Below are positions 4,675 to 28,591 of a DNA stretch of 37,868 bases, piece after piece; the stretch's first letter is position 1; the number at the start of each line of letters is the position of its first letter. This DNA is from Deferrisomatales bacterium (lineage in GTDB: Bacteria > Desulfobacterota > Deferrisomatia > Deferrisomatales > JACRMM01). The position numbers were made by a program, and so were the translations under genes. The stretch spans positions 1 to 37,868 of the forward strand of contig JAWSUI010000036.1 of the NCBI GenBank assembly GCA_033551855.1. The letters are read 5' to 3'. The notes under the pieces were generated by a model. The model was given only the letters and a program-made list of their open reading frames with translations, ran no database searches and was not told where the DNA came from.

Positions 4675-4929
4675 ATGGCCCTCAACATCCGAAACCCCGA
4701 GGCAGAGGAGCTGGCCGAGACGCTGGCCAGGCTCACCGGCGAGACCAAGACGGAAACGGTCACCCGCGCCCTGCGCGATCGGCTCGCCCGGCTTCGCCGG
4801 GAGCGGTCCCAGCTGCGGCTCGCCGACGAGCTCGACGAAATCGCCAAGCATTGCGCTCGACTTCCGGTGCAGGACAGGCGGACTCCGGACGAGATCCTGG
4901 GGTACGACGCCCACGGGCTGCCTCGCTGA
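4675..4929 (+). CDS. vapB: VapB-type antitoxin (Rv0623/PSK transcription factor family)
   Basis: MALNIRNPEAEELA..LA..TGETKT..V..AL...GYD..GLP family pattern; AGGAGG RBS; stop overlaps the toxin ATG. Confidence 0.88.
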   Translation: MALNIRNPEAEELAETLARLTGETKTETVTRALRDRLARLRRERSQLRLADELDEIAKHCARLPVQDRRTPDEILGYDAHGLPR

Positions 4930-5333
4930 TGGTCCTCGACACCTCGGCCCTGCTCGCCATCCTGCAGGACGAGCCCGAGCGCCGCGCCTTCAACGAGGCG
5001 ATCGAGAGTGCCGACGCCGTGCGGATGTCCGTGGCGACCCTTGTAGAGGCGTCGATCGTCATCGAAGTCCGCTACGGGGCCGAGGGGCTGAGAGATCTGG
5101 ATCGCTTCGTGGACCGCGCCGCGATCGAGCTGGCCCCGGTAGACGTCGCGCAGGCCCGCGAGGCGCGCCTCGCCTTCAGCCGGTTCGGCAAGGGCCGGCA
5201 CCCTGCCGGCCTGGACTTCGGCGACTGCTTCGCTTACGCCCTCGCCCGCGTTCTCGGGGAACCGCTCCTCTTCAAGGGTGACGACTTTTCGCAGACCGAC
5301 GTCGCCCCCTTTGCAGCCGCCCCGAACCAGTGA
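4929..5333 (+). CDS. vapC: VapC PIN-domain toxin
   Basis: MVLDTSALLAIL, GKGRHPAGLDFGDCFAYA, LLFKGDDF; TGATG coupling to the antitoxin. Confidence 0.92.
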   Translation: MVLDTSALLAILQDEPERRAFNEAIESADAVRMSVATLVEASIVIEVRYGAEGLRDLDRFVDRAAIELAPVDVAQAREARLAFSRFGKGRHPAGLDFGDCFAYALARVLGEPLLFKGDDFSQTDVAPFAAAPNQ

Positions 5334-11705: not shown

Positions 11706-11954
11706 ATGGTCAGAACGCAGATTCAGTTCACCGAAGCTCAGGCACGGAGATTGAAAATCGCCGCCCAGAGGGCCGGAACATCGGTTTCGGAGCTCGTGCG
11801 GCAGTGTGTGGAGCAGCGGCTCGCAGCAGAGCCCGAGGACCGGGCAGCGCTCTACGCGAGGGCAAGCCGGTTGATCGGCCGCTTCGAGGATGCCGAAGGG
11901 GCAACGGACCTATCGTCCCACCACGACCGATACGTCGAGGACGCCTATCGATGA
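11706..11954 (+). CDS. Ribbon-helix-helix (CopG-like) antitoxin
   Basis: MVRTQIQFTE...S.SELVR and C-terminal DLSSHHDRY; GGAGGT RBS; ATGA overlap with the PIN gene. Confidence 0.85.
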   Translation: MVRTQIQFTEAQARRLKIAAQRAGTSVSELVRQCVEQRLAAEPEDRAALYARASRLIGRFEDAEGATDLSSHHDRYVEDAYR

Positions 11955-12349
11955 GCCGCGTCTTCGTCGACACCTCCGCCATCGTCGCCCTCCTCGTCTC
12001 TTCCGACGAGGCCCATGAGAGGGCGGTGGCGGCCTTCGCCGGTCTTCGCCGCCGGTTGGCGTCCCTGGTGACGACGTCCTACGTGCTGGTCGAGACCTAT
12101 GCCCTCCTCGGCCGCCGCCTGGGGCCCGCTGCCGTGGCCTCGTTCCGCACGGACTTTGCACCGCTGCTGGAGGTCGTGTGGATCGGAGAGGAGCTCCACG
12201 ACCGGGGCCTCGACCTCCTGCTCGAGAAGAGCGCCCGCACGTTGAGCCTGGTCGACGCGGTGTCGTTCATCGTGCTCCGGGACCTCAACCTCAGGGAAGT
12301 CTTCGCGTACGACGCCCACTTCGCTTCCGAGGGTTACCCCGCGGCGTGA
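11951..12349 (+). CDS. PIN-domain (VapC-like) toxin
   Basis: VFVDTSAIVAL, TTSYVLVET, SLVDAVSF, FAYDAHF. Confidence 0.9.
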   Translation: MSRVFVDTSAIVALLVSSDEAHERAVAAFAGLRRRLASLVTTSYVLVETYALLGRRLGPAAVASFRTDFAPLLEVVWIGEELHDRGLDLLLEKSARTLSLVDAVSFIVLRDLNLREVFAYDAHFASEGYPAA

Positions 12350-12375: not shown

Positions 12376-14022
12376 CTACCGAATGCCGAGACGCGCCATC
12401 TTCTTGTACAGGGCGGTGCGGTGGATCCCCAGGGACCGGGCGGCCTGGGCTCGGTTGCCGCCGGCGGCCTCCAGGGCCGCCTCTACTGCGCCGCGCTCGG
12501 CCCGGGCCAGTTCGTCCCCGAGGGTCCCCGGGGCGGCGGCGCCGCGGCTCTCGCTGAGGGCCGGCGGCAGATGGCGGGCCTCGATGGTCACCCCGGGTAC
12601 CTGCCAGGCGAGGCGCCGCATGAGACCCCGCAATTCCCGGATGTTGCCCGGCCAGGCGTAGCGCGCCATGGCGTCGAGGGCGTCGGGGGTGAGCCTCCGG
12701 CTGGGCAGCTTCTCGCGCTGACACACTTCGGCGAGAAAGTGCCGGGCCAGGAGCGGGATGTCACCGGGACGGTCCCGCAGGGGCGGGATCTCCAGGGGGA
12801 TCTCGTGGACCCGGTAGTAGAGGTCGCTGCGAAACTCGCCCCGGGCCACCATGGCACCGAGTTCCCGGTTGGTGGCCACCACCAGGCGGAAGTCGACGGC
12901 CACGGGCGCCGTTCCCCCCAGGCGCTCCACCGCGCGCTCCTCCAGCACCCGCAGCAGCTTGGCCTGGCTGTCCCGGGGCAGCTCACCGGCCTCGTCCAGG
13001 AACAAGGTCCCGCCCGTGGCGAGCTCGAACTTCCCCGGCTTGCCCCGGCGCCGCGCCCCGCTGAAGGCCCCCTCCTCGTACCCGAAGAGCTCGGCTTCGA
13101 TCAGGTCCCGGGGAATGGCGGCGCAGTTCACCGCCACGAAGGGGCCCTTGCGGCGGCGCGAGCCCTGGTGGAGCGCCTGGGCGAAGAGCTCCTTGCCGGT
13201 GCCGCTCTCCCCCAGGAGGAGCACGGTGGCCGAGGAGTCGGCAACGCGGCGGGCCTGCTCGATGCGCCCCAACATCGCCGCGTCGGCGGTGAGGATGTCG
13301 TCGAAGGACCACCGCCGGCCCCGCATCTCGTCCAGGAGCGTCTCGTAGCGCTCCATCTGCCGCTCCATGGCGCGCACGCGGCCGGCGAGCTCCTCCATCT
13401 GCTCCGGGCTCTGGAAGAGGATCCGGCCCACCGCACCCACCACCTGGCCGCCGCGCCGCACGGGCAGGTTGACCGTGACCTTGGTCTGCCCCGCCAGGTC
13501 CATGAGCTGGGCGTGGTCCGGCACCCCGGTGCGGGCGACCTCGGGCAGCCGGCTGCCCGGGGAGAGGTCCGAAAGGAGCAGGCCGGCCGCGGCTCCGCGC
13601 TCCAGCCCAAACCAGGCCTCGTTGCTGGGGCTGAGGAAGGTGACGCGCCCCTGGCCGTCCACGGCCGTGAGGCCCTCGTAGGGGTTGTCCAGTGCGAGGC
13701 GCACCATCTCCTCGTTGACGGCGCGGTCCCCGTAGGGTCCGAGGATGCGGTCGGCGGCGCGCACGGGCCGCACCACCAGTACCTCCACGTCGCCCCGCCC
13801 CTCGGCCTGCACGAACCACTCCTGCCCCCAGAATCGCCACTGCCCCGGCGCCAGATCCCCGAGCTCCTCGGGCAGCGGCGCCCCCGCCGCGAAGCCGAGG
13901 GTGGCGAAGGGGAAAGCGGCGGGGGCGAGGGCGGCCACGCGCCCCGCGCCGTCGAGGAGAGCGACCCCGCAGCGGCAGTACTCAGCGGTGCGGAGCGTAG
14001 GGGGAGCGAGGGGTGTCTCCAT
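12376..14022 (-). CDS. Sigma54-dependent transcriptional activator (PAS, AAA+, Fis-type HTH)
   Basis: GESGTGKELFA, NCAAIP, ELFGYEEGAFSGA, LFLDE, VVATNR, FRSDLYYR, WPGNIREL, AARSLGIHRTALYKK. Confidence 0.95.
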   Translation of the reverse strand: METPLAPPTLRTAEYCRCGVALLDGAGRVAALAPAAFPFATLGFAAGAPLPEELGDLAPGQWRFWGQEWFVQAEGRGDVEVLVVRPVRAADRILGPYGDRAVNEEMVRLALDNPYEGLTAVDGQGRVTFLSPSNEAWFGLERGAAAGLLLSDLSPGSRLPEVARTGVPDHAQLMDLAGQTKVTVNLPVRRGGQVVGAVGRILFQSPEQMEELAGRVRAMERQMERYETLLDEMRGRRWSFDDILTADAAMLGRIEQARRVADSSATVLLLGESGTGKELFAQALHQGSRRRKGPFVAVNCAAIPRDLIEAELFGYEEGAFSGARRRGKPGKFELATGGTLFLDEAGELPRDSQAKLLRVLEERAVERLGGTAPVAVDFRLVVATNRELGAMVARGEFRSDLYYRVHEIPLEIPPLRDRPGDIPLLARHFLAEVCQREKLPSRRLTPDALDAMARYAWPGNIRELRGLMRRLAWQVPGVTIEARHLPPALSESRGAAAPGTLGDELARAERGAVEAALEAAGGNRAQAARSLGIHRTALYKKMARLGIR

Positions 14023-14030
14023 GAGGGTTC

Positions 14031-14110
14031 ATGTCTCCGCAGGTCTACATTAAGGCGCAGACCCTTCCGGGCCACGACCTCTCGCAGGTTGGTGTATCCC
14101 AAGATCTACA
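14031..14110. promoter_or_regulatory. Two TGT-N12-ACA upstream activator sites
   Basis: TGTCTCCGCAGGTCTACA (14032-14049) and TGTATCCCAAGATCTACA (14093-14110), 100-180 bp upstream of the sigma54 promoter. Confidence 0.65.
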
Positions 14111-14208
14111 TGCGGCCATCTTAGCAGACGGGTCGGCCGGAGGCTATCCCCCGGTCCCAGGGCCGTCGTTGCTCGCCAGAAGCCGCGGAAGCACTTCCCG
14201 GCATCCGC

Positions 14209-14225
14209 TTGGCACGGCGTTTGTA
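14209..14225 (+). promoter_or_regulatory. Sigma54 -24/-12 promoter of the acyl-CoA catabolic operon
   Basis: TTGGCACGGCGTTTGTA matches YTGGCACG-N4-TTGC except for GT at -12; adjacent to the divergent activator gene. Confidence 0.75.
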
Positions 14226-14311
14226 AGGGCCCCCGGGCAAGGGGCCGAAGTCGGCGGGCTTCGGCGAGCCCTGGCCCCCCGGTTGCCATCCGAGAGACCA
14301 GGAGTAGAGCG

Positions 14312-15982
14312 ATGACGCACAACGGCAGCTTCACCTACGATACGACCATGTTTCGCGACACCTTCGAAAACGAGTTCACCTACTACGCCGGGTTCCTCCG
14401 CAATGCCCATCGGTACGCGGGCAACGTCGCCATCACCTGCCCCATCCGCGAGAGGGAGTGGACGTACCTGGACCTGGCGCAGGAGTGCAACCGCCTCGCC
14501 CACGCGCTGCGGCGGGACGACGTCGCCAAGCCCGACGTGGTCATGTACCAGATGTTCAACAGCGCCGAGTGGACGTTCCTGTACCTGGCGCCCCAGCAGC
14601 TCGGGGCCATCAACTGCCCGATCAACTTCCGGCTCTCCTACGGGGAGACCGCCTACACCATCGACGACAGCAAGCCGAAGGTCTTCTTCTACGACGCCGA
14701 GCTCTCCGTCATGGTCGAAAAGGCGCTCCGGACCGCCCGGCACAAACCCGACCGGGTGGTGATGGTCGACGGCGGCGGCGGCGCCGTGCCCATCGCCGGG
14801 GCGGTGCCCTACGGGGAGTACGTCGAGGGCTGCCCGGACACCGACGTCGGCATCCGCCGCCCCACCCACATCTACGACGAGACCACGCGGCTCTACACCT
14901 CGGGCACCACGGGGATGCCCAAGGGCGTGCCCTTGAACAACGTCAACGAGATCTTCAGCGCCCACGACGTGATCATGCACTTCCCCCTCTCCCCCGCGGA
15001 CAAGACCCTCAACATGACGCCTTGGTTCCACCGGGGCGGCCTCTACTCCGGCGGGCCGAACCCGACCCTCTACGTGGGCGCCGGGCTCATGCCCCTGCGG
15101 CAGTTCGACGCGGCGACGGTCTTGAACCTGGTGGAGCGCCACGGCCTGACGTTCCTCATCGGGGCGCCCGTGACCCTCCAGGCCCTCCACGACGAGCAGC
15201 TCAGGAAGCCCCGCGACCTCGGCCGCCTCAAGGGCATCGTCACTATGGGCGCGCCCTTGGATCGGGCGTCGTGCATCCGGTTCCAACAGGTGCTCACCCC
15301 CAACATCTTCAACGGCTACGGGTCGACCGAGGGGTTCTGGAACACCTTCCTTCGGCCCTTCGATCTGCCCGACATGGCAGGCGCCGCCGGCCGCTCCTGC
15401 ACCGACGACGACATGGCGGTCGTGAAGATGTATCCCGGCCGCTTGGCCGAGCCCGACGACCACGTCGCGAAGGACAACGAGGAGGTGGGGGAGATCATCG
15501 TCAAGCCGAGCGCCAAGTGCTCCTACACCTATATCAACAAGCCCGACGAGGCCAAGGCGAAGTACTACAAGGGCTGGCTCTACATCGGCGACCTCGGCAG
15601 GTGGAACGAGCAAGAGTACGTGACGGTCGTCGGCCGCAAGGACGACATGCTCATCAGCGGCGGCGAGAACATCCAGCCCCCCCAGGTCGAGGCCGCGCTC
15701 AAGGAGCATCCGGACGTCGCGGACAGCCTCGTGGTCGGCATGCCGGACGCCAAATGGGGACAGGTGGTGGTGGCCTACGTGCGGGCCCGGGACTCGGGGT
15801 TGACCGCCAAGGAGTTGGACGCGTTCCTCCTTCGGCACCCGATGCTCGCGAACTACAAGCGCCCCCGGTACTACCGCTTCGTGGATGCCCTGCCCCTGAC
15901 GGCCACCGGCAAGAAGATGCACTACAAGATCCGGCAGCAGGTCCACGACGACGATTGCGCGGGGCTGCTCACCAAGGTCTGA
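14312..15982 (+). CDS. AMP-forming acyl-CoA synthetase (candidate cyclohexanecarboxylate-CoA ligase)
   Basis: [12 protein letters not shown]-loop, [32 protein letters not shown]; substrate inferred from context. Confidence 0.9.
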
Positions 15983-16028
15983 CCCGAAAGAACGCCCGAG
16001 CCCGGGCCCCAACAGAACGGGAGTCGCC

Positions 16029-17177
16029 ATGTTCGCCACCACCGAAGAGCTGCGCATCCTGCGGGACACGGTCCGCCGAGCGGCCCGGGAGCGCATCGCG
16101 CCCCTGGCCCCGTCCATCGACGCCGCCGGGGAGTTCAACCGCGACGTAGAGGCCCTGTGCTGGGACCTGGGGCTCCTCACCCTCATCTTTCCGCCCCAGT
16201 ACGGCGGCGCCGAGCGGGACCAGGGCACGGCCCTGTGCATCGCGGTGGAGGAGATCGCCCGCCACTGCGCCTCCTCCGCGCTTCTCCTGATCATCCAGGC
16301 GGTTGGCAGCTTCCCCATCCTCCACGGCGCCCCGCCGGAGGTCCTGGAACGCGTGCTGCCCCGGATCGCCGAGAACCGGGAGCTCGCCGCCTACCTGGTC
16401 ACCGAGCCCTCGGCGGGCTCCGACGTGGGGGCCGTCCGCACCACGGCGGTCCGGGACGGGAGCGAGTACGTCCTCGCCGGAACCAAGTGCTTCGCCACCA
16501 ACGGCGGCGTGGCATCCGTCTACTCCTGCCTGGCGCGCACCTCGCACGCCCCGGGGCGCGACGGCCTCTCGTTCTTCCTGGTGGAGCGCGAACGTCCGGG
16601 CCTCAAGGTGGGCAAGGTGGAGAAGAAGCTGGGCCAGAAGGGCTCCAACACCACCGAGGTGATCCTCGACGAGGTCCGGGTGCCCGCCGAGAACCTCCTG
16701 GGCCAGGAAGGCAAGGGGTTCCTCCTGGCCATGAAGGACTTCGACATGTCCCGCCCGGCCATCGGCGCCCAGGCCCTGGGGATCGCCGAGGGGGCTTTGG
16801 CCGAGATGGTGACGTACACCTCCCAGCGAAAGACCTTCGGCAAGGCCCTGTGCGAGCACCAGATGATCCAGCAGATCCTCGCCGACAGCGCCACCCTGGT
16901 CGAGGCATCGAGGGGGCTCGTCTATCGGGCCGCGCGCCTCTTCGACGACGGGCAGCGCAACACCAAGCTCGCCTCCATGGCCAAGGTGTTCGCCTCGGAC
17001 GCGGCCATGAAGATCACCACCGACGCCGTCCAGGTGTTCGGGGGATACGGCTACATGCACGACTACCCGGTGGAGCGGATGTTCCGCGACGCCAAGCTCA
17101 CCCAGATCTTCGAGGGCGCCAACCAGATCCAGCGCCTGGTGATCGCGCGGGAGCTCTTGAAGGAAAGTCCTGCCTAG
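16029..17177 (+). CDS. Cyclohexanecarboxyl-CoA dehydrogenase (acyl-CoA dehydrogenase)
   Basis: ACAD motifs ([24 protein letters not shown]); [18 protein letters not shown] and [12 protein letters not shown] recall the Syntrophus/Geobacter enzyme (from memory). Confidence 0.82.
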
Positions 17178-17182
17178 ATCTT

Positions 17183-17211
17183 ATAGGTCCTATAGGACGT
17201 ATAGGACCTAT
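17183..17211. repeat. AT-rich 9-mer repeat forming a perfect 12-bp hairpin
   Basis: ATAGGTCCTATA-GGACG-TATAGGACCTAT; also reads as three TATAGGNNN units. Confidence 0.75.
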
Positions 17212-17238
17212 CTCAACAAGTCTTGTGGAGGTACTTCA

Positions 17239-18385
17239 ATGAACCGCCTGACCGAAGAACAGAAGATCGCTCTCGACATGGTGCGCAAGGTGGCCGACCG
17301 GGAGATCGCGCCCCTGGCCAAGGAACTGGACGAGAAGGGGCTGTTCCCCGAGCGCGCCCGCGACCTCTTCGCCGAGCTCGGCCTCCTGAATCCCCTTCTG
17401 CCCACCGAGTATGGCGGGCCCGGCATGGGGATCTCCACCATGGTCTTGATCCTGGAGGAGATCGCCCGCGTCTGCGCCGCCACCTCGCTGCTGCTCGTGG
17501 CCCAGGCCGACGGCATGCTGCCGATCCTCCACGGGGGCAGCGAGGAACTCAAGAGGAAGTATCTGTCCCGCCTGGGCGGCGATTCCAGGCTCCTCACGGC
17601 CCTGGCCGCCACCGAGCCTTCGGCCGGCTCGGACCTCCTGGCCATGAAGACCCGGGCCGTGCGCAAGGGAGACAGCTACGTCCTCAACGGGCAGAAGTGC
17701 TTCATCACCAACGGCTCGGTGGCCGACCTCCTCTCGGTCTACGCCTATACCGACCCTTCCAAGAGCGCCTGGGGCATCAGCGCCTTCGTCGTGGAGAAGG
17801 GGTCTCCGGGCCTGAAGTACGGGCGCAACGAATCCAAGATGGGAATGCGGGGGTCCGTCAACTCGGAGCTCTTCTTCGAGGACCTGGAAGTCCCGGCGGA
17901 GAACCGCATCGGGGACGAGGGCACCGGGTTTGCCAACCTCATGCAAACCCTCTCGGTGAACCGCCTCTTCTGCGCGGCCCAGGCCGTGGGCATCGCCCAG
18001 GGGGCCCTGGACGAGGCCACCCGCCACGCCCGGGAGCGCGTCCAGTTCGGCAAGTCGATCGCGCATCTCGCGCCCGTCGAGTTCATGATCGCGGACATGG
18101 CCACGGGCGCGGAAGCGGCCCGCCTCCTCACCCGCAAGGCCGCCGCCCTCTTCGACGCCGGCGAGCCCCGGCAGGCAGCCCTCTACGGCGGGATGGCCAA
18201 GACCCTGGCGAGCGACACCGCCATGCAGGTCACCACGGATGCGGTCCAGGTCATGGGCGGGTACGGGTACATGAAGGACAACGGGGTCGAGCGCATGATG
18301 CGCGACGCCAAGCTCCCCCCGGATCTACACCGGCACGAACCAGATCACCCGGCTCGTCACGGGCCGGGCGCTGCTGCTCGGGTGA
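17239..18385 (+). CDS. Cyclohex-1-ene-1-carboxyl-CoA dehydrogenase with +1 frameshift at about 18315-18322 (error or pseudogene)
   Basis: [48 protein letters not shown]; the native C-terminus IYTGTNQITRLVTGRALL (Thr in place of the catalytic Glu) lies in the shifted frame and ends at TGA 18385; as sequenced the ORF runs to 18405. Confidence 0.8.
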
Positions 18386-18422
18386 TCTGCTGCTGCCGAG
18401 AATAGGCGCGCGGCGCGACGAT

Positions 18423-18794
18423 CTCTCCCTCGCCCCCTTGGGGGAGAGGGTCGAGGTGAGGGGCTGGGGCTTCAGCCGCGGGGCGGGGACCCCCCCTCAC
18501 TCTGGCCCTCTCCCCCGGAGGGGAGTGGTAGGGCAGGCACAGCCCACCGGTTTCCCGTCGTGGCCGTGGCCAGAATCCACCACCAAATCTTTGGGGAGGG
18601 GTCCGGGAGCCCTGGAGCGGAAGGCCGTGCCGCCTCGACCGAACTGCGGCAGCTCGGCCGAAACCCGTGAGCTCGGCGCACCGGCTCCGTCGGAGACGCC
18701 GCCTCCGCCCATGGCGGATTGCGGGGAGGAGCGCAAGGGCTCCCGGACCCCGCTTGCCCCCCAGGCGGTGGCTCGTGGGTGGTGCCCACCCTTC
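18423..18794. repeat. Cluster of REP-like palindromes with nested inverted repeats
   Basis: CCCTC..CCCC/GGGGAGAGGG-type pair at 18423-18525; GTAG-type REP arms at 18528-18548 and 18775-18794; perfect 16-bp IR at 18598-18613/18736-18751. Confidence 0.7.
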
Positions 18795-18901
18795 TTTGTC
18801 GGGTCTGCCTGGGGTTCCCCGCGATCGTCATGCACCTCCCCAAGCTCTTGCGGTGAACGATGTCCGTACCAGCGGGCTCAGCCTGGCGATAGGAGACCAC
18901 C

Positions 18902-19696
18902 ATGACCTACTCCGAGATCCTTTACGACAAGACCGACGGTGTGGCGACCGTGACGATCAACCGGCCGCGGCAATACAACGCCTGCACCCCTGTGACCGTG
19001 TACGAGCGCACCCAGGCCCTGACCGACGCCTGGGTGGACCCCTCCGTGGGGGTGGTGGTGCTCACCGGCGCGGGCGACAAAGCGTTCTGCACCGGCGGGG
19101 ACCAGACCCTGCGGGACCGTGGCGGCTACGAGGGCACCGTGGCCGCCCTCCCCCTCGAGGTGGGCTGGCAGCAGGTCACGGGCCTCATCCGCAGCATCCC
19201 CAAGCCGGTGATCGCCCGCGTCAACGGCTACGCCATCGGCGGCGGCCACGTGTTCCACGTGGCGTGCGACCTCTCCATCGCCAGTGAGACCGCCCAGTTC
19301 GGGCAGGCCGGCCCCCGGGTGGGGAGCTTCGACCCGGGGTTCGGCACCGGCGACCTGGCCCGGGCCGTGGGCATGAAAAAGGCCAAGGAGATCTGGTTTC
19401 TGTGCCGTCGGTATACCGCCGGCCAGGCGCTGGAGATGGGCTCGGTGAACGCCGTGGTGCCGGCCGCCGAGCTCGACCGGGAGGTCGCGGGCTGGTGCCG
19501 AGAGCTCCTGGACAAGGGCCCCACGGCCCTCAAGATGCTCAAGCACGCCTTCCACGCCGAGACCGACGGCGTAGCCGGCATCACCAACCTCGGCGTGGGC
19601 GGCCTGAGCATGTACTACGGCACCGACGAAGCCCTGGAGGGCCGAAACGCCTTCGTGGAGAAGCGGCCCCCGGAGTTCGGGAAGTTTCGCAAGTAG
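18902..19696 (+). CDS. MenB/BadI-family crotonase (candidate 2-ketocyclohexanecarboxyl-CoA hydrolase)
   Basis: AFCTGGDQ, PKPVIARVNGYAIGGGH, FGQAGPRVGSFDPGFG, KKAKEIWFLCRRY, YYGTDEA.EGRNAF; no men genes nearby and the context is catabolic. Confidence 0.8.
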   Translation: MTYSEILYDKTDGVATVTINRPRQYNACTPVTVYERTQALTDAWVDPSVGVVVLTGAGDKAFCTGGDQTLRDRGGYEGTVAALPLEVGWQQVTGLIRSIPKPVIARVNGYAIGGGHVFHVACDLSIASETAQFGQAGPRVGSFDPGFGTGDLARAVGMKKAKEIWFLCRRYTAGQALEMGSVNAVVPAAELDREVAGWCRELLDKGPTALKMLKHAFHAETDGVAGITNLGVGGLSMYYGTDEALEGRNAFVEKRPPEFGKFRK

Positions 19697-19751
19697 AAGG
19701 TGCAGGCCGTTGCCCCGGCGGGGCCCCAGAGGAGGAAGAGGAGGACCGAGC

Positions 19752-20627
19752 ATGGCCGTTGAGAAGGTTCTGGTCACGGGCGCCGGGTTGATGGGAAGCG
19801 GGATCGCCCAGGTGTGCGCCCAGGCGGGGCTCCGGGTCTGGCTGCACGACGTGAGCCGGGGGGCCCTCGATCGGGCCCGGCAGGAGATCGGCCGGTCCGT
19901 GGGCAAGCTCGCCGAGAAGGGGCGGCTCGCCGAGCCGGCGGAGGCAGTGCTGGAACGCGTCTCCTTCGTCGGGGATCTGGAGGCCGGTGCCGGGGCCGAC
20001 CTCGCCGTGGAGGCGGTCTTCGAGGACCGGGAGGTAAAGCGCGAGGTCTTCCGCCGCCTGGCCGAGGTCTGCCGCCCCGAGGCTCTCCTGGCCACCAACA
20101 CCTCCGCCATCCCGGTGAGCGAGCTCGCCGCGGCCGCGTCCCGGCCCGAGCGGGTGCTGGGACTGCACTTCTTCAGCCCCGTACCCCTCATGCAGGCGGT
20201 GGAGGTGATCGCCGGCTACGCCACGAGCCCGGAGACCTTCGAGGCGGGCCGGCTCTTCGCGCTGCGCATCGGCAAGGAGCCCATCCTGGTGCGCCGGGAC
20301 GTTCCCGGCTTCGTGCTGAACCGGATCAACCTCCCCTCGACGATCGAGGCGATGCACCTGGTGGAAGAGGGCGTGGCCACCCCCGAAGACATCGACAAGG
20401 GGGTGCGCCTCGCCCTGGGGCGAAAGATGGGGATCTTCGAGACCGGCGACCTCGTGGGGCTCGACGTCACCTGCGGCGCGCTCAAGGCCCTGTACGAGGA
20501 GACGAAGGACCCCCGTTGGTACCCGCCCATGATCCTGCGGCGCAAGGTCGCGGCCGGTCACCTGGGGCGGAAGGCAGGCCGGGGCTGGTACGCCTACGAC
20601 GCCGGTGGCAACCGGGTGGAGGAGTGA
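19752..20627 (+). CDS. 3-hydroxyacyl-CoA dehydrogenase (Hbd/PaaH-like)
   Basis: GAGLMGSGIA, EAVFED, ATNTS, GLHFFSPVP, PGFVLNR, DLVGLD, LGRKAGRGWY. Confidence 0.93.
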   Translation: MAVEKVLVTGAGLMGSGIAQVCAQAGLRVWLHDVSRGALDRARQEIGRSVGKLAEKGRLAEPAEAVLERVSFVGDLEAGAGADLAVEAVFEDREVKREVFRRLAEVCRPEALLATNTSAIPVSELAAAASRPERVLGLHFFSPVPLMQAVEVIAGYATSPETFEAGRLFALRIGKEPILVRRDVPGFVLNRINLPSTIEAMHLVEEGVATPEDIDKGVRLALGRKMGIFETGDLVGLDVTCGALKALYEETKDPRWYPPMILRRKVAAGHLGRKAGRGWYAYDAGGNRVEE

Positions 20628-20629
20628 GC

Positions 20630-21412
20630 ATGTCGGCGCGGCGAGCACACTACGAGCTGGAGGACCGGGTGGCGGTGGTCACCCTGGACAACCCGCCCCT
20701 GAACGCCCTGAACGTGGACACCCGCGAGGCGTTGGCGGCGGTCTTCGCCGAGCTCCACGGCCGCCGGAACGAGATCCGGGCCGTCGTGCTCCGGGGAGGC
20801 GGGGACAAGGCCTTCGCGGCCGGGGCCGACATCAAGGGCTTCCTCGACCTCGACTGCGCCTCGGCCAGGCGTCAGCTGCTCCGAGCCCAAGAGATCAATG
20901 TCGCGGTCGAGAGCTTCCCCCGGCCGGTGCTGGCCGCGATTCACGGCTACTGCCTGGGCGGGGGCCTGGAGCTCGCCCTCTGCTGCGACTGCCGGTTCGC
21001 CTCGGAGGACGCCAAGTTCGGCTTTCCCGAAGTGAAGCTCTCCGTCTTCCCGGGCAACGGGGGCACCCAGCGGGCCCGCCGCCACCTGAGCCTCGGCCGG
21101 GTGAAGGAGCTCATGTTCACGGGCGACATGGTGGGCGCCCGCGAGGCCCTGGAGTACGGGCTCGTGGAGCGGGTGGTGCCGGCTGGGCAGGTGTTGGAGG
21201 CGACTCTGGCGGTGGCCGGGCGCATCGCCAGCCGAGGCCCCTTGGCCGTGGCCGCGGTCAAGGCGGTGCTCAACGCCACCCAGGGGGTCCCCCTGGCGGA
21301 GGGCCTGGAGGTGGAGGCCGACGCCTGGAGCCGGCTTGCCGAGACAGAGGACATGAAGGAGGGCGCGCGGGCGTTCCTCGAAAAGCGCGAACCCCTCTGG
21401 AAGGCAAAGTAG
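20630..21412 (+). CDS. Enoyl-CoA hydratase/isomerase
   Basis: LDNPPLNAL, AFAAGADI, GYCLGGGLELALCCD, FGFPEVKL..FPGNGGTQR, EGARAFLEKR. Confidence 0.92.
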   Translation: MSARRAHYELEDRVAVVTLDNPPLNALNVDTREALAAVFAELHGRRNEIRAVVLRGGGDKAFAAGADIKGFLDLDCASARRQLLRAQEINVAVESFPRPVLAAIHGYCLGGGLELALCCDCRFASEDAKFGFPEVKLSVFPGNGGTQRARRHLSLGRVKELMFTGDMVGAREALEYGLVERVVPAGQVLEATLAVAGRIASRGPLAVAAVKAVLNATQGVPLAEGLEVEADAWSRLAETEDMKEGARAFLEKREPLWKAK

Positions 21413-21440
21413 CCCCGGCGGCGTCAAGGAGGGTGCATCG

Positions 21441-23231
21441 ATGAGCCACTTCAAGGTCGAGGAGCGAGACCTCTTCTTCATCCTCAAAGAGCAGCTCGAC
21501 TACGGCAGCCTGTGCCGCCTCGAGCGGTACCGCGATCTGGACGAGGAGACCCTGGACCTCACCCTGACCGAGGCGGTCAAGTTCGCCCGGGGAGTCGTCG
21601 CCCCCCTCCAGGAGGTCGGCGAGCGCTGGGGAACCCCCTACGAGAAGGGCCGGGTGCGCTGCGCCCCGGAGTTCCGCGAGGCGCTGCGGCTCTATGGGGA
21701 GAACGGGTGGGTCGGCGCCTCCCGCGACCCGGCGTGGGGCGGGAGCGGCCTTCCCCACATGATGCGCTACGTCGTCAACGAGCTCATGTACGGGGCCTGC
21801 CAGGCCTTCAACAGCTGCCCCAGCCTCACCCACGGCGCGGGGCACCTGATCGAGACCTTCGGCACCGAGGATCTCAAGCGCCGGTTCGTTCCCCCCATGT
21901 ACGCCGCCCGGTGGACCGGCACGATGTGCCTCACGGAGCCCCAGGCCGGCTCGAACCTAGCCGCCGTGCGCACCCTGGCGGTGCCCGAGCCCGAGGGCGG
22001 CGCCTACCGGATCCGGGGGACCAAGATCTTCATCTCGTGGGGGGAGCACGACCTCACGGAGAACATCGTCCACCTGGTGCTTGCCCGCACCCCGGGCGCC
22101 CCCGAGGGGGTCAAGGGAATCTCCCTCTTCGTGGTCCCCAAGCTCCGGGTGGGCGCCGACGGCCGCCCCGGAGCCCCCAACGACGTCATCTGCACCGGCG
22201 TGGAGCGAAAGCTCGGCCTCCACGCCTCCCCCACCTGCACCCTGACCTTCGGGGATGAGGACGGGTGCGTCGGGTACCTGTGCGGCACGGAGAACCGGGG
22301 GCTCGCTCACATGTTCCAGATGATGAACTCCGCTCGAATCAACAGCGGGGTGAGCGGCATGGCGCTGGCCGGCTCCGCCTACCGCAATGCCCTGGAGTAC
22401 GCCCGGGGGCGGATCCAGGGCACCGACCTCGCCGGGCGCAAGAAGGGCTACGTCCCGATCACCGACCACCCGGACGTGCGCCGCATGCTCCTGTGGATGA
22501 AGGCCACGGTGGACGGCCTGCGCTCCCTCATCTACTCGGCCGCCTACTGGCACGACCTGGCCAGGGAGCTGCCCGAGGGCCCCGAGCGCACCCAGCGGCG
22601 CCACCTCACCGAATTCCTGACCCCCATCGTCAAGGCCTACGCCTCGGACCAGGGCTTCCGCGTCTGCGAGACGGCCATGCAGTGCCTGGGGGGCTACGGC
22701 TTCTGCGAGGACTACCCCCTGGAGCAGTACCTGCGGGACGCGAAGGTGCTCTCCCTCTACGAGGGCACCAACGGCATCCAGGCCATCGACCTCCTGGGCC
22801 GGAAGATGGAGCAGGACGGCGGCGCCCCCTACCGGGCCTGGCTCGCCGAGGTGGAGGGCTTCTGCACGGCCCACGGGGGCGACGAGGCTCTGGGGGGTGC
22901 CGTGCAGGACCTCGGCCGGGCGGTCGGGCGCCTGAAGCAGGTGGCCGAAGAGCTCGCCCAGCGCCGGCGCTCCGAGCCCCTGCGCTGGGGCTGCTCCACC
23001 TACCCCGCCCTCCTCTCCTTCGGCGATCTCACGGTGGCGTGGCGGCTCCTCGACCTGGGACTTGCCGCCGCCAAGACGCTCCGGGAAGGGCGTGGCTCTG
23101 ACTACCACCGGGGCAAGGTGCTCCAGGCCTCCTACTTCGCCAACGCCACCCTCCCGCCGGCGCTCGGGCGCCTCGAGAGCTCCCTCGCCGAGCGCGGCGA
23201 GCCGGTGGAGATGCCGGAGGAGGCCTTCTGA
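21441..23231 (+). CDS. Long-type acyl-CoA dehydrogenase (about 600 aa)
   Basis: GTMCLTEPQAGS, GTKIFISWGEHD, GISLFVVPK, MFQMMN.AR, GGYGF, YEGTNGIQAIDLLGRK. Confidence 0.93.
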   Translation: MSHFKVEERDLFFILKEQLDYGSLCRLERYRDLDEETLDLTLTEAVKFARGVVAPLQEVGERWGTPYEKGRVRCAPEFREALRLYGENGWVGASRDPAWGGSGLPHMMRYVVNELMYGACQAFNSCPSLTHGAGHLIETFGTEDLKRRFVPPMYAARWTGTMCLTEPQAGSNLAAVRTLAVPEPEGGAYRIRGTKIFISWGEHDLTENIVHLVLARTPGAPEGVKGISLFVVPKLRVGADGRPGAPNDVICTGVERKLGLHASPTCTLTFGDEDGCVGYLCGTENRGLAHMFQMMNSARINSGVSGMALAGSAYRNALEYARGRIQGTDLAGRKKGYVPITDHPDVRRMLLWMKATVDGLRSLIYSAAYWHDLARELPEGPERTQRRHLTEFLTPIVKAYASDQGFRVCETAMQCLGGYGFCEDYPLEQYLRDAKVLSLYEGTNGIQAIDLLGRKMEQDGGAPYRAWLAEVEGFCTAHGGDEALGGAVQDLGRAVGRLKQVAEELAQRRRSEPLRWGCSTYPALLSFGDLTVAWRLLDLGLAAAKTLREGRGSDYHRGKVLQASYFANATLPPALGRLESSLAERGEPVEMPEEAF

Positions 23232-23387
23232 CCAGGCTCCCTCCCATACGGTCGGGGGACACAGGGGGACCGGGGGCCGGCGGCGGAAGGAGGTTTCTGC
23301 TTCCCGTCCCTCGCGCTCCAACGCCCGACGCGCGGGCGGGTGAAGGTGGCGGGGGCAAACCCCGTCCAGGCGGGGATTTTCCCGTCG

Positions 23388-23499
23388 TCATGCCGCCGTT
23401 GTGTGGAGCTTGAGCCCGAGGGCCTTGATCACCTTCATCACCGTGGCGAACTCCGGGTTGCCGTCCGCGGACAGTGCCTTGTAGAGGCTCTCTCGCGCC
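23388..23499 (-). pseudogene. C-terminal remnant of an addiction-module antidote (HI1420-like HTH) gene
   Basis: ARESLYKALSADGNPEFATVMKVIKALGLKL; the upstream in-frame sequence is unrelated. Confidence 0.7.
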
Positions 23500-23636
23500 A
23501 GAAAGAAAGAAAAAGCAAGTGCGGCCCTCACGTCCAGGTGCCTCACCCCGGCAGCCATGGTACAGTTGACTCCAGCGGGTCCCGCGGAAGAATCGCGATC
23601 GCGGGGCAGGGCAATCGGCCATCGCCGGAGGCAGGC

Positions 23637-23891
23637 ATGGACCGACATCAGAAGCTCATGCGGCACATTCTGATGCGTCGGGGTGATGCAAACGTCCCGT
23701 TTGCGAGCCTATGCCGGCTGCTGCTTAGACTGGGCTTCGATGAGCGCGTCAAGGGAGACCACCACATCTTCACCCGACCGGACCTGACGGAGATCCTCAA
23801 CCTTCAGCCCGGGGGAACCGTCGCGAAGCCCTACCAGGTCAAACAGGTCCGCGATCTCATCCTCCGCTACGGCCTCACGCTTGGGGAGTAG
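23637..23891 (+). CDS. hicA: HicA-family toxin
   Basis: LGF.ERVKGDHHIF, EILNLQP, AKPYQVKQVR; GGAGG RBS. Confidence 0.88.
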   Translation: MDRHQKLMRHILMRRGDANVPFASLCRLLLRLGFDERVKGDHHIFTRPDLTEILNLQPGGTVAKPYQVKQVRDLILRYGLTLGE

Positions 23892-23895
23892 GACG

Positions 23896-24108
23896 ATGGA
23901 CTGGAAGTACGAGTTGATCATCTACTGGAGTCCGGAAGACCACGCGTACATTGCCGAGGTGCCGGAGTTGCCGGGATGCATGGCCGACGGGGAAACCTAC
24001 CAGGACGCCGTGGCCAGAGCCCAGGTGGTCATCGGTGAGTGGATCGAGACCGCCAAGGCACTGGGCAGGGACATTCCAGAGCCCCGCGGCCGGTTGATGT
24101 ATGCCTGA
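23896..24108 (+). CDS. hicB: HicB-family antitoxin (short, no DNA-binding domain)
   Basis: KYELIIYWS.ED..IAEVPELPGCMADGETY..A....IETAK.LGR.IPEP. Confidence 0.9.
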   Translation: MDWKYELIIYWSPEDHAYIAEVPELPGCMADGETYQDAVARAQVVIGEWIETAKALGRDIPEPRGRLMYA

Positions 24109-25907: not shown

Positions 25908-26720
25908 ATGACCCCAGCCCCCTCCCGTTCCCTGGCCCTCCAGGCCTTCTTCTACCCATACCGCGGCCTGAAGTTCCTGTTCGCGCACCCCCGCCTCCTG
26001 GGGTACGCGGCCGTTCCCTTCGCGATCAACACCCTGCTGTACGCCGGTGTCATCTGGTTCGCGGGCTCGCGCTTCGGCAGCTGGGTCACCGCCCTGATCC
26101 CCCAGGGGGAGGCGTGGTACTGGAGCGTCCTCTTCTATGCCCTGTGGGTCGTCTTCGCCGCCGTGCTCTTCCTCCTCGTCGCCTTCACCTTCGCCCTGCT
26201 GGGCAACCTGCTGCTCGAGCCCTTCAACGACCTGCTCTCGGAGCAGGTGGAGTGGGCCTACACCGGGGATCGGCGGGAGGAGCCCTTTCGGCTGGGCGTC
26301 TTCTGGGCCGACGCGGGGCGCTCCTTCGCCACGGGCCTGCGCCGGATAGCCCTCTGGGCCCCGGGGGCGCTCGTGCTCTGGGCGGGAAGCTTCCTCTTCT
26401 GGCCCCTGACCCCCCTGCTGGCCCTGTACACGGCCTTCTTCCTGGGGTGGGCCTACCTCGACTACTCCATGGACCGGTGGCGGTTCGGGTTCGCGGCCAA
26501 GCGCAGAACCGCACGGCAGAACCTCTCGGCCTTCCTCACCTTCGGCGCCGGTGCGGCGCTCCTGCTCCTCATCCCCCTCCTGAGCTTCCTGGCGATCCCG
26601 GTGTGCGTGACGGGAGCCACCCTGTTGTTCTGCGATCTGCGCTCCCGGGGCAAGCTGCCGCAGGCCACGGGAAGCGGGGTAGACGCCGAAGTGGCCCCGA
26701 AGGGAGCTCCCCCGCGATGA
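25908..26720 (+). CDS. EI24/CysZ-family membrane protein
   Basis: Several TM helices, PFNDLLSEQVE, YLDY...R, P.CVTGATL. Confidence 0.8.
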   Translation: MTPAPSRSLALQAFFYPYRGLKFLFAHPRLLGYAAVPFAINTLLYAGVIWFAGSRFGSWVTALIPQGEAWYWSVLFYALWVVFAAVLFLLVAFTFALLGNLLLEPFNDLLSEQVEWAYTGDRREEPFRLGVFWADAGRSFATGLRRIALWAPGALVLWAGSFLFWPLTPLLALYTAFFLGWAYLDYSMDRWRFGFAAKRRTARQNLSAFLTFGAGAALLLLIPLLSFLAIPVCVTGATLLFCDLRSRGKLPQATGSGVDAEVAPKGAPPR

Positions 26721-28591
26721 GCCGCGCCACCGAGAACGCGGCGGTGGACGCCGACTGGAAGAGCCGCTACGCGTCGCGGGTCGTCACCCGGGAGACCGCC
26801 CTCTCCCGCATCCAGCGCGGCGGCAAGATCTTCGTGGGGTCCGCCTGCGCCGAGCCCCAGTATCTGGTGGAGGGGCTCGCCCAGAGGGCAGCGAACCTCG
26901 CGGACTCGGAGATCCTCAGCATCCTGACCCTGGGCATCGCGCCCTACACGGACGAGAAGCTCGCCAAGATCTTTCGCCACAACGCGTTCTTCATCGGCGA
27001 CAACACCCGCCGGGCGGTCGCCGAGGGGCGGGCCGACTACACGCCGGTGTACCTCTCGGAGCTGCCGCAGCTCTTCCGGAGCCGGAGGACCCGTGTCGAT
27101 GCCGCGCTGATCCAGGTCACTCCCCCCGACCGCCACGGCTACGTCAGCCTGGGCGTCAGCGTCGATGTGACCAAGGCCGCCGTCGAGTCCGCCCGCGTCG
27201 TGATCGCCGAGGTCAACCCCCGCATGCCCCGCACCCTGGGGGACTCCTTCATCCCGGTCGACCGGATCGACTACCTGGTGGAGCACGCCGCCCCGGTGAT
27301 CGAGTACCTCCCCCCGACGCCGGACGACGTGGCCTCACGCATCGGCGGCAACATCGCCCGGCTGGTCAGCGACGGCGCCACGATCCAGATCGGCATCGGG
27401 TCCATCCCGAACGCGGCCGTCCACGCCCTGCGCGACAAGCGCGACCTCGGCGTCCACACGGAGATGTTCTCGGACTGGCTGCTGGACCTCGTTCGGGCGG
27501 GCGCGGTGACCAACCGCCGGAAGACGCTGCACCGGGGAAAGGCCGTCGCGTCGTTCTGCATGGGGACCCAGGACCTCTACGACTTCATCGACAACAACCC
27601 GATGGTGGAGCTCCACCCCAGCGAGTACACGAACGACCCCTACGTCATCGGCCAGAACGACAACATGGTCTCCATCAACACCGCCCTGGAAATCGACCTC
27701 ACCGGGCAGGTGTGCTCCGACTCCATCGGGCACCAGTTCTACAGCGGCATCGGGGGCCAGGTGGACTTCATCCGGGGCGCGGCCCGGAGCGCGGGCGGGA
27801 AGCCCATCATCGCCCTGCCCTCCACCGCCCGGGGCGACGCCGTGACCCGCATCGTGCCCCAGCTCTCACCCGGGGCCGGCGTGGTCACCACCCGGGCCTC
27901 GGCCCGCTACGTGGTCACGGAGTGGGGGTACACGGACCTCCACGGCAGGACGATTCGCGAGCGCGCCATGGCCCTGATCAACATCGCCCACCCCAAGTTC
28001 CGCAAGGAGCTTCTCGAGGCGGCCAAGCGGCTCCACTACGTCTACCCGGACCAGATCATCCCCACCTCCCTGGACCTCTACCCGGAGAAGTACGAGCAGC
28101 GCACCGTGCTCGCGGGGCGGGAGATTCTGGTGCGGCCGGTGCGGGCCACCGACGAGCCGCTGCTCAAGGACCTGTTCTACAGCCTCTCGGACGAGTCCGT
28201 CTACCGGCGCTACTTCAACGTCATCAAGTACATGCCCCACGAGCGCCTCCAGGAGGAGCTCGACCTGGACTACCAGAGCCGCATGGCCATCGCGGCGGTG
28301 GCGGAGCAGGGCGGCGTGGAGGAGATGGTGGGGCTGGCACAGTACGTGCTGGACGAGTCGACGAACTTCGCCGAGGCCGCCTTCCTGGTGCGCGACGAGT
28401 GGCAGGGCAAGGGGCTGGGCGGCCACCTGGTGCGAACCCTCGTGCGGATCGCCCAGGACAAGGGCGTCCGGGGCATCACCGCGGAGGTGATGCCGGGCAA
28501 CCGGGCCATGCTCCACCTCTTCTACAAACTGGGCTACACGGTGGAGAGCCGTCTCGAGGAGGGGGCCTACCATCTCGAGTTCCTGATTTGA
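26717..28591 (+). CDS. Acetyl-CoA hydrolase/transferase fused to a C-terminal GNAT domain
   Basis: SLGVSVD, DGATIQIGIG.IP, DLGVHTEM, EIDLTGQV, SGIGGQVDF, VVTEWG; then EAAFLVRDEWQGKGLG and N.AM..LF.KLG; ATGA overlap with the upstream gene. Confidence 0.92.
   Translation: MSRATENAAVDADWKSRYASRVVTRETALSRIQRGGKIFVGSACAEPQYLVEGLAQRAANLADSEILSILTLGIAPYTDEKLAKIFRHNAFFIGDNTRRAVAEGRADYTPVYLSELPQLFRSRRTRVDAALIQVTPPDRHGYVSLGVSVDVTKAAVESARVVIAEVNPRMPRTLGDSFIPVDRIDYLVEHAAPVIEYLPPTPDDVASRIGGNIARLVSDGATIQIGIGSIPNAAVHALRDKRDLGVHTEMFSDWLLDLVRAGAVTNRRKTLHRGKAVASFCMGTQDLYDFIDNNPMVELHPSEYTNDPYVIGQNDNMVSINTALEIDLTGQVCSDSIGHQFYSGIGGQVDFIRGAARSAGGKPIIALPSTARGDAVTRIVPQLSPGAGVVTTRASARYVVTEWGYTDLHGRTIRERAMALINIAHPKFRKELLEAAKRLHYVYPDQIIPTSLDLYPEKYEQRTVLAGREILVRPVRATDEPLLKDLFYSLSDESVYRRYFNVIKYMPHERLQEELDLDYQSRMAIAAVAEQGGVEEMVGLAQYVLDESTNFAEAAFLVRDEWQGKGLGGHLVRTLVRIAQDKGVRGITAEVMPGNRAMLHLFYKLGYTVESRLEEGAYHLEFLI

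Follow-up and report, generated by a model that had tools for sequence, protein, structure and literature searches.

A candidate composite locus for cyclohexanecarboxylate degradation with a BadI-side crotonase in a Deferrisomatales bacterium

We analysed a 37,868-nucleotide stretch of DNA from a Deferrisomatales bacterium (assembly GCA_033551855.1, contig JAWSUI010000036.1, here C36), referred to as the window, which is part of a genome of 4.24 Mb with 70% GC. Positions 12376 to 23231 hold eight genes in two joined blocks: a known module for cyclohexanecarboxylate (CHC) degradation on the left, and a block consisting of a BadI-like crotonase and beta-oxidation genes on the right. We give about an even chance to the reading that the whole is a composite, branched CHC locus in which a putative Bad-like bypass lies beside the diene route. 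The module on the left has been published; the rest of the locus is an apparently undescribed arrangement around a distinct clade on the BadI side, with presence and absence of the gene that defines the diene route. No published description of this clade or of the cluster was found in the literature searched, whose coverage did not extend to supplements and several key Syntrophus papers. The eight open reading frames proposed in an initial annotation of the window were borne out, and each could be given a family.

In the proposed scheme, a sigma-54 activator would drive expression of a ligase making cyclohexane-1-carbonyl-CoA (CHC-CoA) from CHC, and a first acyl-CoA dehydrogenase (ACAD1) would convert this to cyclohex-1-ene-carbonyl-CoA. 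An intact second dehydrogenase (ACAD2) would then make the 1,5-diene for Dch, Had and Oah, which are encoded on another contig; orthology to characterised enzymes shows the steps of this route, and we infer the flux through the diene branch. In the bypass, the hydratase and the Hbd-type dehydrogenase would turn cyclohex-1-ene-carbonyl-CoA into 2-oxo-CHC-CoA, the crotonase (of a group that we call clade X) would open this ring to pimeloyl-CoA, and beta-oxidation of the resulting C7 chain would be continued by a long ACAD, the hydratase and Hbd, together with a thiolase encoded elsewhere. Hydratase and Hbd would serve both ring and chain because the genome is without a BadH-like short-chain dehydrogenase/reductase (SDR). 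Such a bypass would make ACAD2 dispensable and so explain its absence from a relative and from part of one population.

The diene-forming module

The first gene of the rightward cluster encodes an AMP-forming acyl-CoA ligase (14312..15982, plus strand) of the Desulfobacterota CHC module, not of the AliA type. Its orthologues (65-84% identity) adjoin dehydrogenases in loci L093, L105, L106, L112, L128, L169 and L199. The initial annotation had treated the ligase as part of the Bad route, a view that we abandoned: the protein scored 155 against TIGR03208 (cut-off, 792) and is 27% identical to an Aromatoleum (A. toluolicum) AliA, and PMC5109826 supplies a precedent in Desulfococcus multivorans, where two dehydrogenases directly adjoin an AMP-dependent synthetase and all of the proteins were detected on CHC and feed Dch/Oah.

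ACAD1 (16029..17177, plus strand), a cyclohexane-1-carbonyl-CoA dehydrogenase with catalytic Glu362, exceeded the NF043006 equivalog cut-off for CHC-CoA dehydrogenase (684.9 vs 650 bits). It is not of the AliB type (TIGR03207, 199 vs 575; 33% identity to the A. toluolicum protein). ACAD2 (17239..18385, plus strand) is a 1,4-dehydrogenating cyclohex-1-ene-carbonyl-CoA (Ch1CoA) dehydrogenase that is frameshifted in the window. Its best match in the PDB was the Geobacter metallireducens Ch1DH 7P98 at 606.7 bits, the next being 313.8, and it carries in frame D91 and G92 (within AQADG) and N241, residues tied to 1,4-dehydrogenation in PMC9293079. The assignment of the two tandem dehydrogenases to CHC-CoA and Ch1CoA dehydrogenases was thus upheld.

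The second motif proposed for ACAD2, IYTGTNQ, occurs only in the +1 frame, owing to one extra base at about 18316-18322 that had gone unnoticed, whereas AQADG stands in frame. As assembled, the protein loses T363/G364 and its last helix. Contigs from three runs fall short of the window by one base each, over stretches that share 17881-18355, and in the relative G004 the +1-frame C-terminus is in frame; the C-terminus is intact in locus L200. The frame break therefore most likely reflects either an error of assembly or a mutation at strain level.

Among 90 fetched ACAD2 loci, 70 encode both D91 and G92, and of these 27 have an ACAD1 orthologue and seven a ligase orthologue (at least 55%). One of them, L169, has the activator, ACAD1, ACAD2 and ligase at 68, 76, 76 and 73% identity. 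G004, from the same family as the window genome, shares the four left genes and, beyond a contig break that falls inside ACAD2, continues with thiolase, SDR, dch and had. Because L169, D. multivorans (PMC5109826) and G004 show similar arrangements, the combination of a ligase with the diene enzyme is not new, and the left block (activator, ligase and two dehydrogenases) is the published CHC module of strict anaerobes.

The 70 proteins with D91 and G92 (L099-L178) differ at position 241, with 14 Asn, 47 Ser, 8 Gly and 1 Ala; PMC9293079 calls N241 invariant. Those without Asn241 may form dienes from other substrates or with a different regioselectivity.

Elsewhere in the window genome, Oah and Had exceeded their cut-offs, and a Dch-like gene, under the TIGR03189 cut-off (148 vs 292.5), lies in the same cluster on contig C1. 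Upstream of this thiolase-SDR-dch-had-oah cluster, at about 81586-83273 of G000:C1 (L086), are bzdQ, over its cut-off, and a bzdP-like gene. No protein of the genome exceeded the cut-off for BzdO.

Known chc (diene) systems in G. metallireducens, Syntrophus aciditrophicus and D. multivorans are similar in having a CHC-CoA dehydrogenase and then a D91-type 1,4-dehydrogenase (PMC9293079, PMC5109826 and PMC9795900), and in having Dch/Had/Oah elsewhere in the genome. As in the window, an AMP-dependent ligase gene lies next to the dehydrogenase genes in D. multivorans (dmul_C00970-C00990). G. metallireducens uses a CoA-transferase, and its equivalent region carries Gmet_3305, a paralogue of oah (PMC1924859). 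The window departs from the chc systems in that the ligase comes first, the cluster has no electron transfer flavoprotein or FeS oxidoreductase gene, the diene gene is frameshifted in the assembly and missing in some strains, and the BadI-like and beta-oxidation block is appended. According to a postulate given in PMC9795900, iron reducers, sulfate reducers and fermenters that degrade CHC do so by the diene route.

The crotonase at 18902 and clade X

The gene at 18902..19696 (plus strand) encodes a crotonase of clade X which, from trees, residues and fold, is a candidate 2-oxocyclohexane-carbonyl-CoA ring hydrolase on the BadI side. It is 96% identical to an NCBI protein labelled Deferrisomatales. 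In an unrooted 45-row tree, built with a careful search and without outgroups, L083, L202 and near-copies, a branch with 100/100 support parts MenB from clade X and two BadI groups; clade X, which holds the 18902 protein, forms a clade of its own (100/99). Labels for the BadI and MenB rows came from gene context or from positions in a first tree, which included outgroups, had an unfinished search and long-branch joins, and was replaced by the 45-row tree. Across 13 diagnostic columns clade X is like BadI in six, like MenB in three and like neither in four. Clade X therefore fits a BadI-type ring hydrolase as far as sequence comparison can indicate. The BadI-like ring opener of the initial annotation stands insofar as the protein falls on the BadI side of the split, but it belongs to a separate clade and missed the BadI cut-off (TIGR03210, 317.7 vs 467.6).

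The 18902 protein keeps Y76, G137, S142, D144 and Y239, which align to Y97, G156, S161, D163 and Y258 of Escherichia coli MenB, positions which we take to have functional roles. Its model (pLDDT 88.8) has the MenB fold, with a TM score of 0.91 to 4I42. The fold search returned MenB structures only, and it is unable to separate MenB from BadI function.

The initial annotation had named as a danger to its proposal the possibility that this crotonase is the organism's menaquinone MenB. It is the sole MenB/BadI-type protein in the genome, and its best NCBIfam scores and PDB matches are to MenB. However, it scored under both close MenB cut-offs (328 vs 342.7; 356 vs 380) and lies outside the MenB clade, in a catabolic gene context. 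No MenD exceeded the cut-off in the genome or in any of the 14 other genomes carrying clade X, and the futalosine-pathway MqnC is present in the window genome. We rejected MenB on these grounds, and regard it as barely credible.

Genome surveys covered 21 genomes of the order (by DNA search) and 400 genomes of the phylum. Members of clade X were found in Desulfobacterota, a Myxococcota-labelled metagenome-assembled genome (MAG) and an Asgard archaeon. Besides the window genome, 14 of the 400 genomes carry it, of which 13 were placed in the first tree and one (G220) has a partial 74% match. A BadH-like SDR (275-320 bits, none over the cut-off of 431) is encoded in 12 of these 14, a count that comes from three families and hence from genomes that are not independent, vs 44 of the 386 other genomes, and Oah in 1 of the 14. 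The SDR gene directly adjoins the clade X gene in L006, L181 and L188/L189, which represent separate lineages. Clade X proteins often carry the annotation naphthoate synthase in genomes that have no men pathway.

In the Promethearchaeota (Asgard) MAG, the clade X protein (L007:10001-10786; 72% identity) is encoded beside an opposite-strand Hbd-type gene.

Two features set clade X apart: a two-residue insertion with W89 after the Tyr76 loop, kept in at least 90% of 32 aligned members, and NAC where MenB and BadI carry NAF. These would suit a right block that acts on another alicyclic acid refractory to Dch/Had/Oah, such as methyl-CHC, cyclopentane or cycloheptane carboxylate, or a ring acid freed by side-chain beta-oxidation, as would a clade X member in L005 that lies (read by eye) beside a B12-binding mutase-like gene. 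ACAD1, however, passes the equivalog cut-off for the unsubstituted substrate, and the cluster holds no transporter, mutase or other substrate clue. We therefore consider a different ring acid unlikely. It had been raised in the form of substituted CHCs or naphthenic acids, and we found nothing pointing to methyl-CHC or naphthenic acids.

Compared with the bad-ali-aab clusters of Rhodopseudomonas palustris and Aromatoleum sp. CIB (PMC9795900), the locus is similar in placing a BadI-family crotonase (59-60% identical to A. toluolicum BadI) beside a ligase, a CHC-CoA dehydrogenase, a hydratase, a hydroxyacyl-CoA dehydrogenase and an ACAD in the aabA position. It differs in that the ligase and dehydrogenase are not AliA and AliB, a BadH SDR and a BadK orthologue are both missing, the hydrolase belongs to a separate clade, and a sigma-54 activator takes the place of the MarR-type BadR (or TetR in Gram-positives). 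The bad-ali survey in that paper lists alpha-, beta- and gamma-proteobacteria and actinobacteria only, with no strict anaerobes of this phylum.

The beta-oxidation genes and the optional ACAD2

The Hbd-type 3-hydroxyacyl-CoA dehydrogenase (19752..20627, plus strand) belongs to a widespread Desulfobacterota beta-oxidation module and is 41% identical to Aromatoleum AabC. The enoyl-CoA hydratase that follows (20630..21412, plus strand) has both catalytic Glu (114 and 134) and is an orthologue of neither AabB nor BadK: it is 42% identical to AabB and 34-38% to two BadK proteins that are themselves 59% alike, and it failed the BadK orthologue test. Relatives of it (55-62%) lie in beta-oxidation clusters L218, L226, L228 and L231. 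The last gene encodes a long ACAD of 596 residues with Glu441 (21441..23231, plus strand). Its orthologues (57-61%) adjoin Hbd in L203, L221, L229 and L234, and because a 60% orthologue in L206 follows badI-like, badH-like and ACAD genes, it would suit a pimeloyl-CoA dehydrogenase. By analogy, the right block looks like an Aromatoleum aab lower pathway joined to a ring hydrolase.

An uncharacterised ACAD-Hbd-thiolase(s) module, conserved in loci L216-L235 and controlled by sigma-54 or TetR-like regulators, is widespread in the phylum; its AabA-like ACAD, represented by the G005 copy, is 54% identical to Aromatoleum AabA.

The initial annotation placed an Hbd-type enzyme where an SDR BadH would be expected. 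The absence of a BadH-like SDR from the window genome agrees with this, the best SDR scoring 161 bits vs 275-320 in other clade X genomes (cut-off, 431). Hbd directly follows clade X both here and in G005, which also lacks a BadH-like SDR, and the L005 genome, in which a hydratase and an Hbd-type gene accompany clade X, has no SDR above 198 bits. These three genomes make the case for Hbd replacing BadH, but the replacement is a supposition that must be set against the wide distribution of the Hbd module.

The joining of the diene enzyme to a BadI-like gene, to which the initial annotation drew attention, is indeed unusual: a MenB/BadI-like gene accompanies none of the 70 other D91 loci, 41 of which extend at least 2.5 kb downstream, so the mix in the window is rare. 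The whole eight-gene cluster was found in no second genome among the 21 order or the 400 phylum genomes. Within the 400, the sets with ACAD2 (10 genomes, 5 candidates scored per genome) and with a MenB/BadI-like protein (36 genomes) do not overlap, which says little because only about one shared genome is expected by chance.

Two observations suggest that ACAD2 may be optional, being missing from one relative and from part of a single population. In G005 a single row holds ACAD1 (80%), clade X (88%), Hbd (68-74%) and an AabA-like ACAD, with only a few bases between ACAD1 and clade X and with the promoter and one palindrome retained. Because no ACAD2 and no BadH-like SDR were found there, the product of ACAD1 would have no other obvious exit. 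(The count of 0/40 for ACAD2 in relatives misleads in the case of G004, whose copy is divided between contig ends.) In run X1, whose contigs differ by about 1% from the window, flanks at a depth of 24-27 branch into a path through ACAD2 (10.8-15.8) and a joint that skips it (18.9). The joint runs from 17164 to 18900 with 10 letters between, and by eye the ACAD1 stop of the joined form overlaps the 18902 start, with a purine-rich ribosome site like that of the G005 junction. The X1 evidence consists of assembled contigs of one study matched at 85% likeness; the joint could therefore stem from another close species, and ACAD2 may have been either gained or lost.

A test for a connection of contigs C96 and C25 of G005, by which that genome would have gained a hydratase, found no support for it.

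In the window, a 516-bp gap (18386-18901) separates ACAD2 from the 18902 gene and holds a long GC-rich hairpin (18406..18545; -90.6 kcal/mol, a value uncompared with shuffles) and a dispersed intergenic repeat of about 205 bp (18570..18775) with 102 copies of at least 150 nt, its own included, on 54 contigs at a mean identity of 71%. This gap, the lack of a MenB/BadI-like gene at the other D91 loci, the frameshift and a base change in the -12 element would all fit two blocks brought together by rearrangement, without co-regulation, in a locus that is perhaps partly decaying. We think this improbable. No separate sigma-54 site and no palindrome were found in the gap, ACAD1 and clade X lie a few bases apart in G005 and abut in the X1 joint, and the contigs of three runs lack the extra base.

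Some copies of the repeat occur in tandem, and copies of 85-88% identity are present in G001.

Several findings weigh against the branched locus. The right-block enzymes all fall short of the family tests for BadI, BadH and BadK. Members of the Hbd family are present in 44 of the 400 genomes; the family has a BadI-like neighbour in 1 of 20 loci (from 19 genomes) and co-occurs with a BadH-like SDR in G097, G128, G242, G270 and G408, which makes ordinary chain beta-oxidation its usual job. A CHC-CoA dehydrogenase over the cut-off is found in 1 of the 14 clade X genomes and many clade X genes stand alone amid unrelated genes, so that context does not fix the substrate; G130 has clade X without a BadH-like SDR and without an adjacent Hbd, and the non-independence of the genomes behind the SDR count belongs here too. 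The G005 cluster is without a ligase and retains only the 3' end of the activator, and may therefore be decaying. The G005 genome yielded no close orthologue of the hydratase (best 46%; its contig ends inside the cluster). The 516-bp gap with its hairpin may also uncouple transcription of the two blocks.

Much of this would be accommodated if the diene route alone acted on CHC, with Hbd, hydratase and long ACAD handling (3-hydroxy)pimeloyl-CoA or other dicarboxylates as a lower pathway similar to Aromatoleum aabABC, and clade X salvaging 2-oxo-CHC-CoA of a different origin or standing idle. Oah and Had are in the genome; in G004 the left genes run directly into thiolase, SDR, dch and had; Hbd and the hydratase are nearer AabC and AabB than BadH and BadK; and of the 20 Hbd loci 15 have an AabA-like ACAD and 16 a thiolase nearby, four also having a 55-62% hydratase relative and three a 57-59% long-ACAD relative. 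We nevertheless hold this account to be somewhat unlikely, as it leaves unexplained both the direct coupling of ACAD1 to clade X where ACAD2 is missing (G005 and the X1 joint) and the link of clade X to BadH-like SDRs. Moreover, according to PMC9795900, a pimeloyl-CoA dehydrogenase is required only after BadI-type cleavage.

Returning to the branched locus, a bolder version of it is possible, although we lean against it: a hidden Bad-type ring-opening route in strictly anaerobic Desulfobacterota, in which a third BadI clade, normally paired with a BadH-like SDR, is here coupled to the CHC module and to a generic Hbd and hydratase acting on ring and chain, the diene dehydrogenase being gained or lost within a population so that the two routes are in exchange. 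If true, a BadI-like clade pairing with BadH-like SDRs in Desulfobacterota would extend Bad-type ring opening to strict anaerobes, the naphthoate synthase labels on clade X proteins in genomes without a men pathway would need correcting, and the use of a dehydrogenase other than an SDR for 2-hydroxy-CHC-CoA would represent a new pairing of enzymes. Otherwise, the locus consists simply of a CHC module and a beta-oxidation module side by side, both of the ordinary kind.

Control elements and neighbouring genes

Divergent to the cluster is a gene for a sigma-54 enhancer-binding activator (12376..14022, minus strand) with an AAA+ domain carrying the GAFSGA motif and a Fis helix-turn-helix. The activator described in the initial annotation is therefore present, but the PAS domain attributed to it is weak and under the Pfam cut-off (PAS_4, E=0.007; PAS, E=0.03). 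Orthologues (63-81%) lie divergent to CHC dehydrogenase genes in L097, L098, L169 and L199.

Two TGT-N12-ACA palindromes (at 14032 and 14093, spanning 14032..14110) are candidate activator-binding sites. Two occur in the window vs 0.03 expected (shuffle P about 0.001), and upstream of orthologous clusters there are three each in L199, L169, L097 and L098 and one in L179. A sigma-54 -24/-12 promoter lies at 14210..14224 (plus strand), with equivalent sites in L199, L169 and L179. The loose motif has 74 occurrences genome-wide; the promoter is credible because the site and the palindromes recur upstream of orthologous clusters. The -24/-12 promoter of the initial annotation was thus located and found to be conserved, but the last base of its -12 element (14224) is non-consensus in the window, vs consensus in the near-identical strain of run X1. 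A scan of the cluster for sigma-70 promoters and terminators gave no signal above shuffles.

In the ACAD1-ACAD2 spacer (17178-17215) there is a short AT-rich word-repeat palindrome with matches on other contigs. Three toxin-antitoxin-like pairs are encoded in the window (4675-5333, 11706-12349 and 23340-24105; two with a PIN domain and one HicA-like), two of which flank the cluster. At 26717-28591, 3.5 kb 3' of the cluster, lies a gene for an acetyl-CoA hydrolase/transferase with a fused C-terminal GNAT domain.

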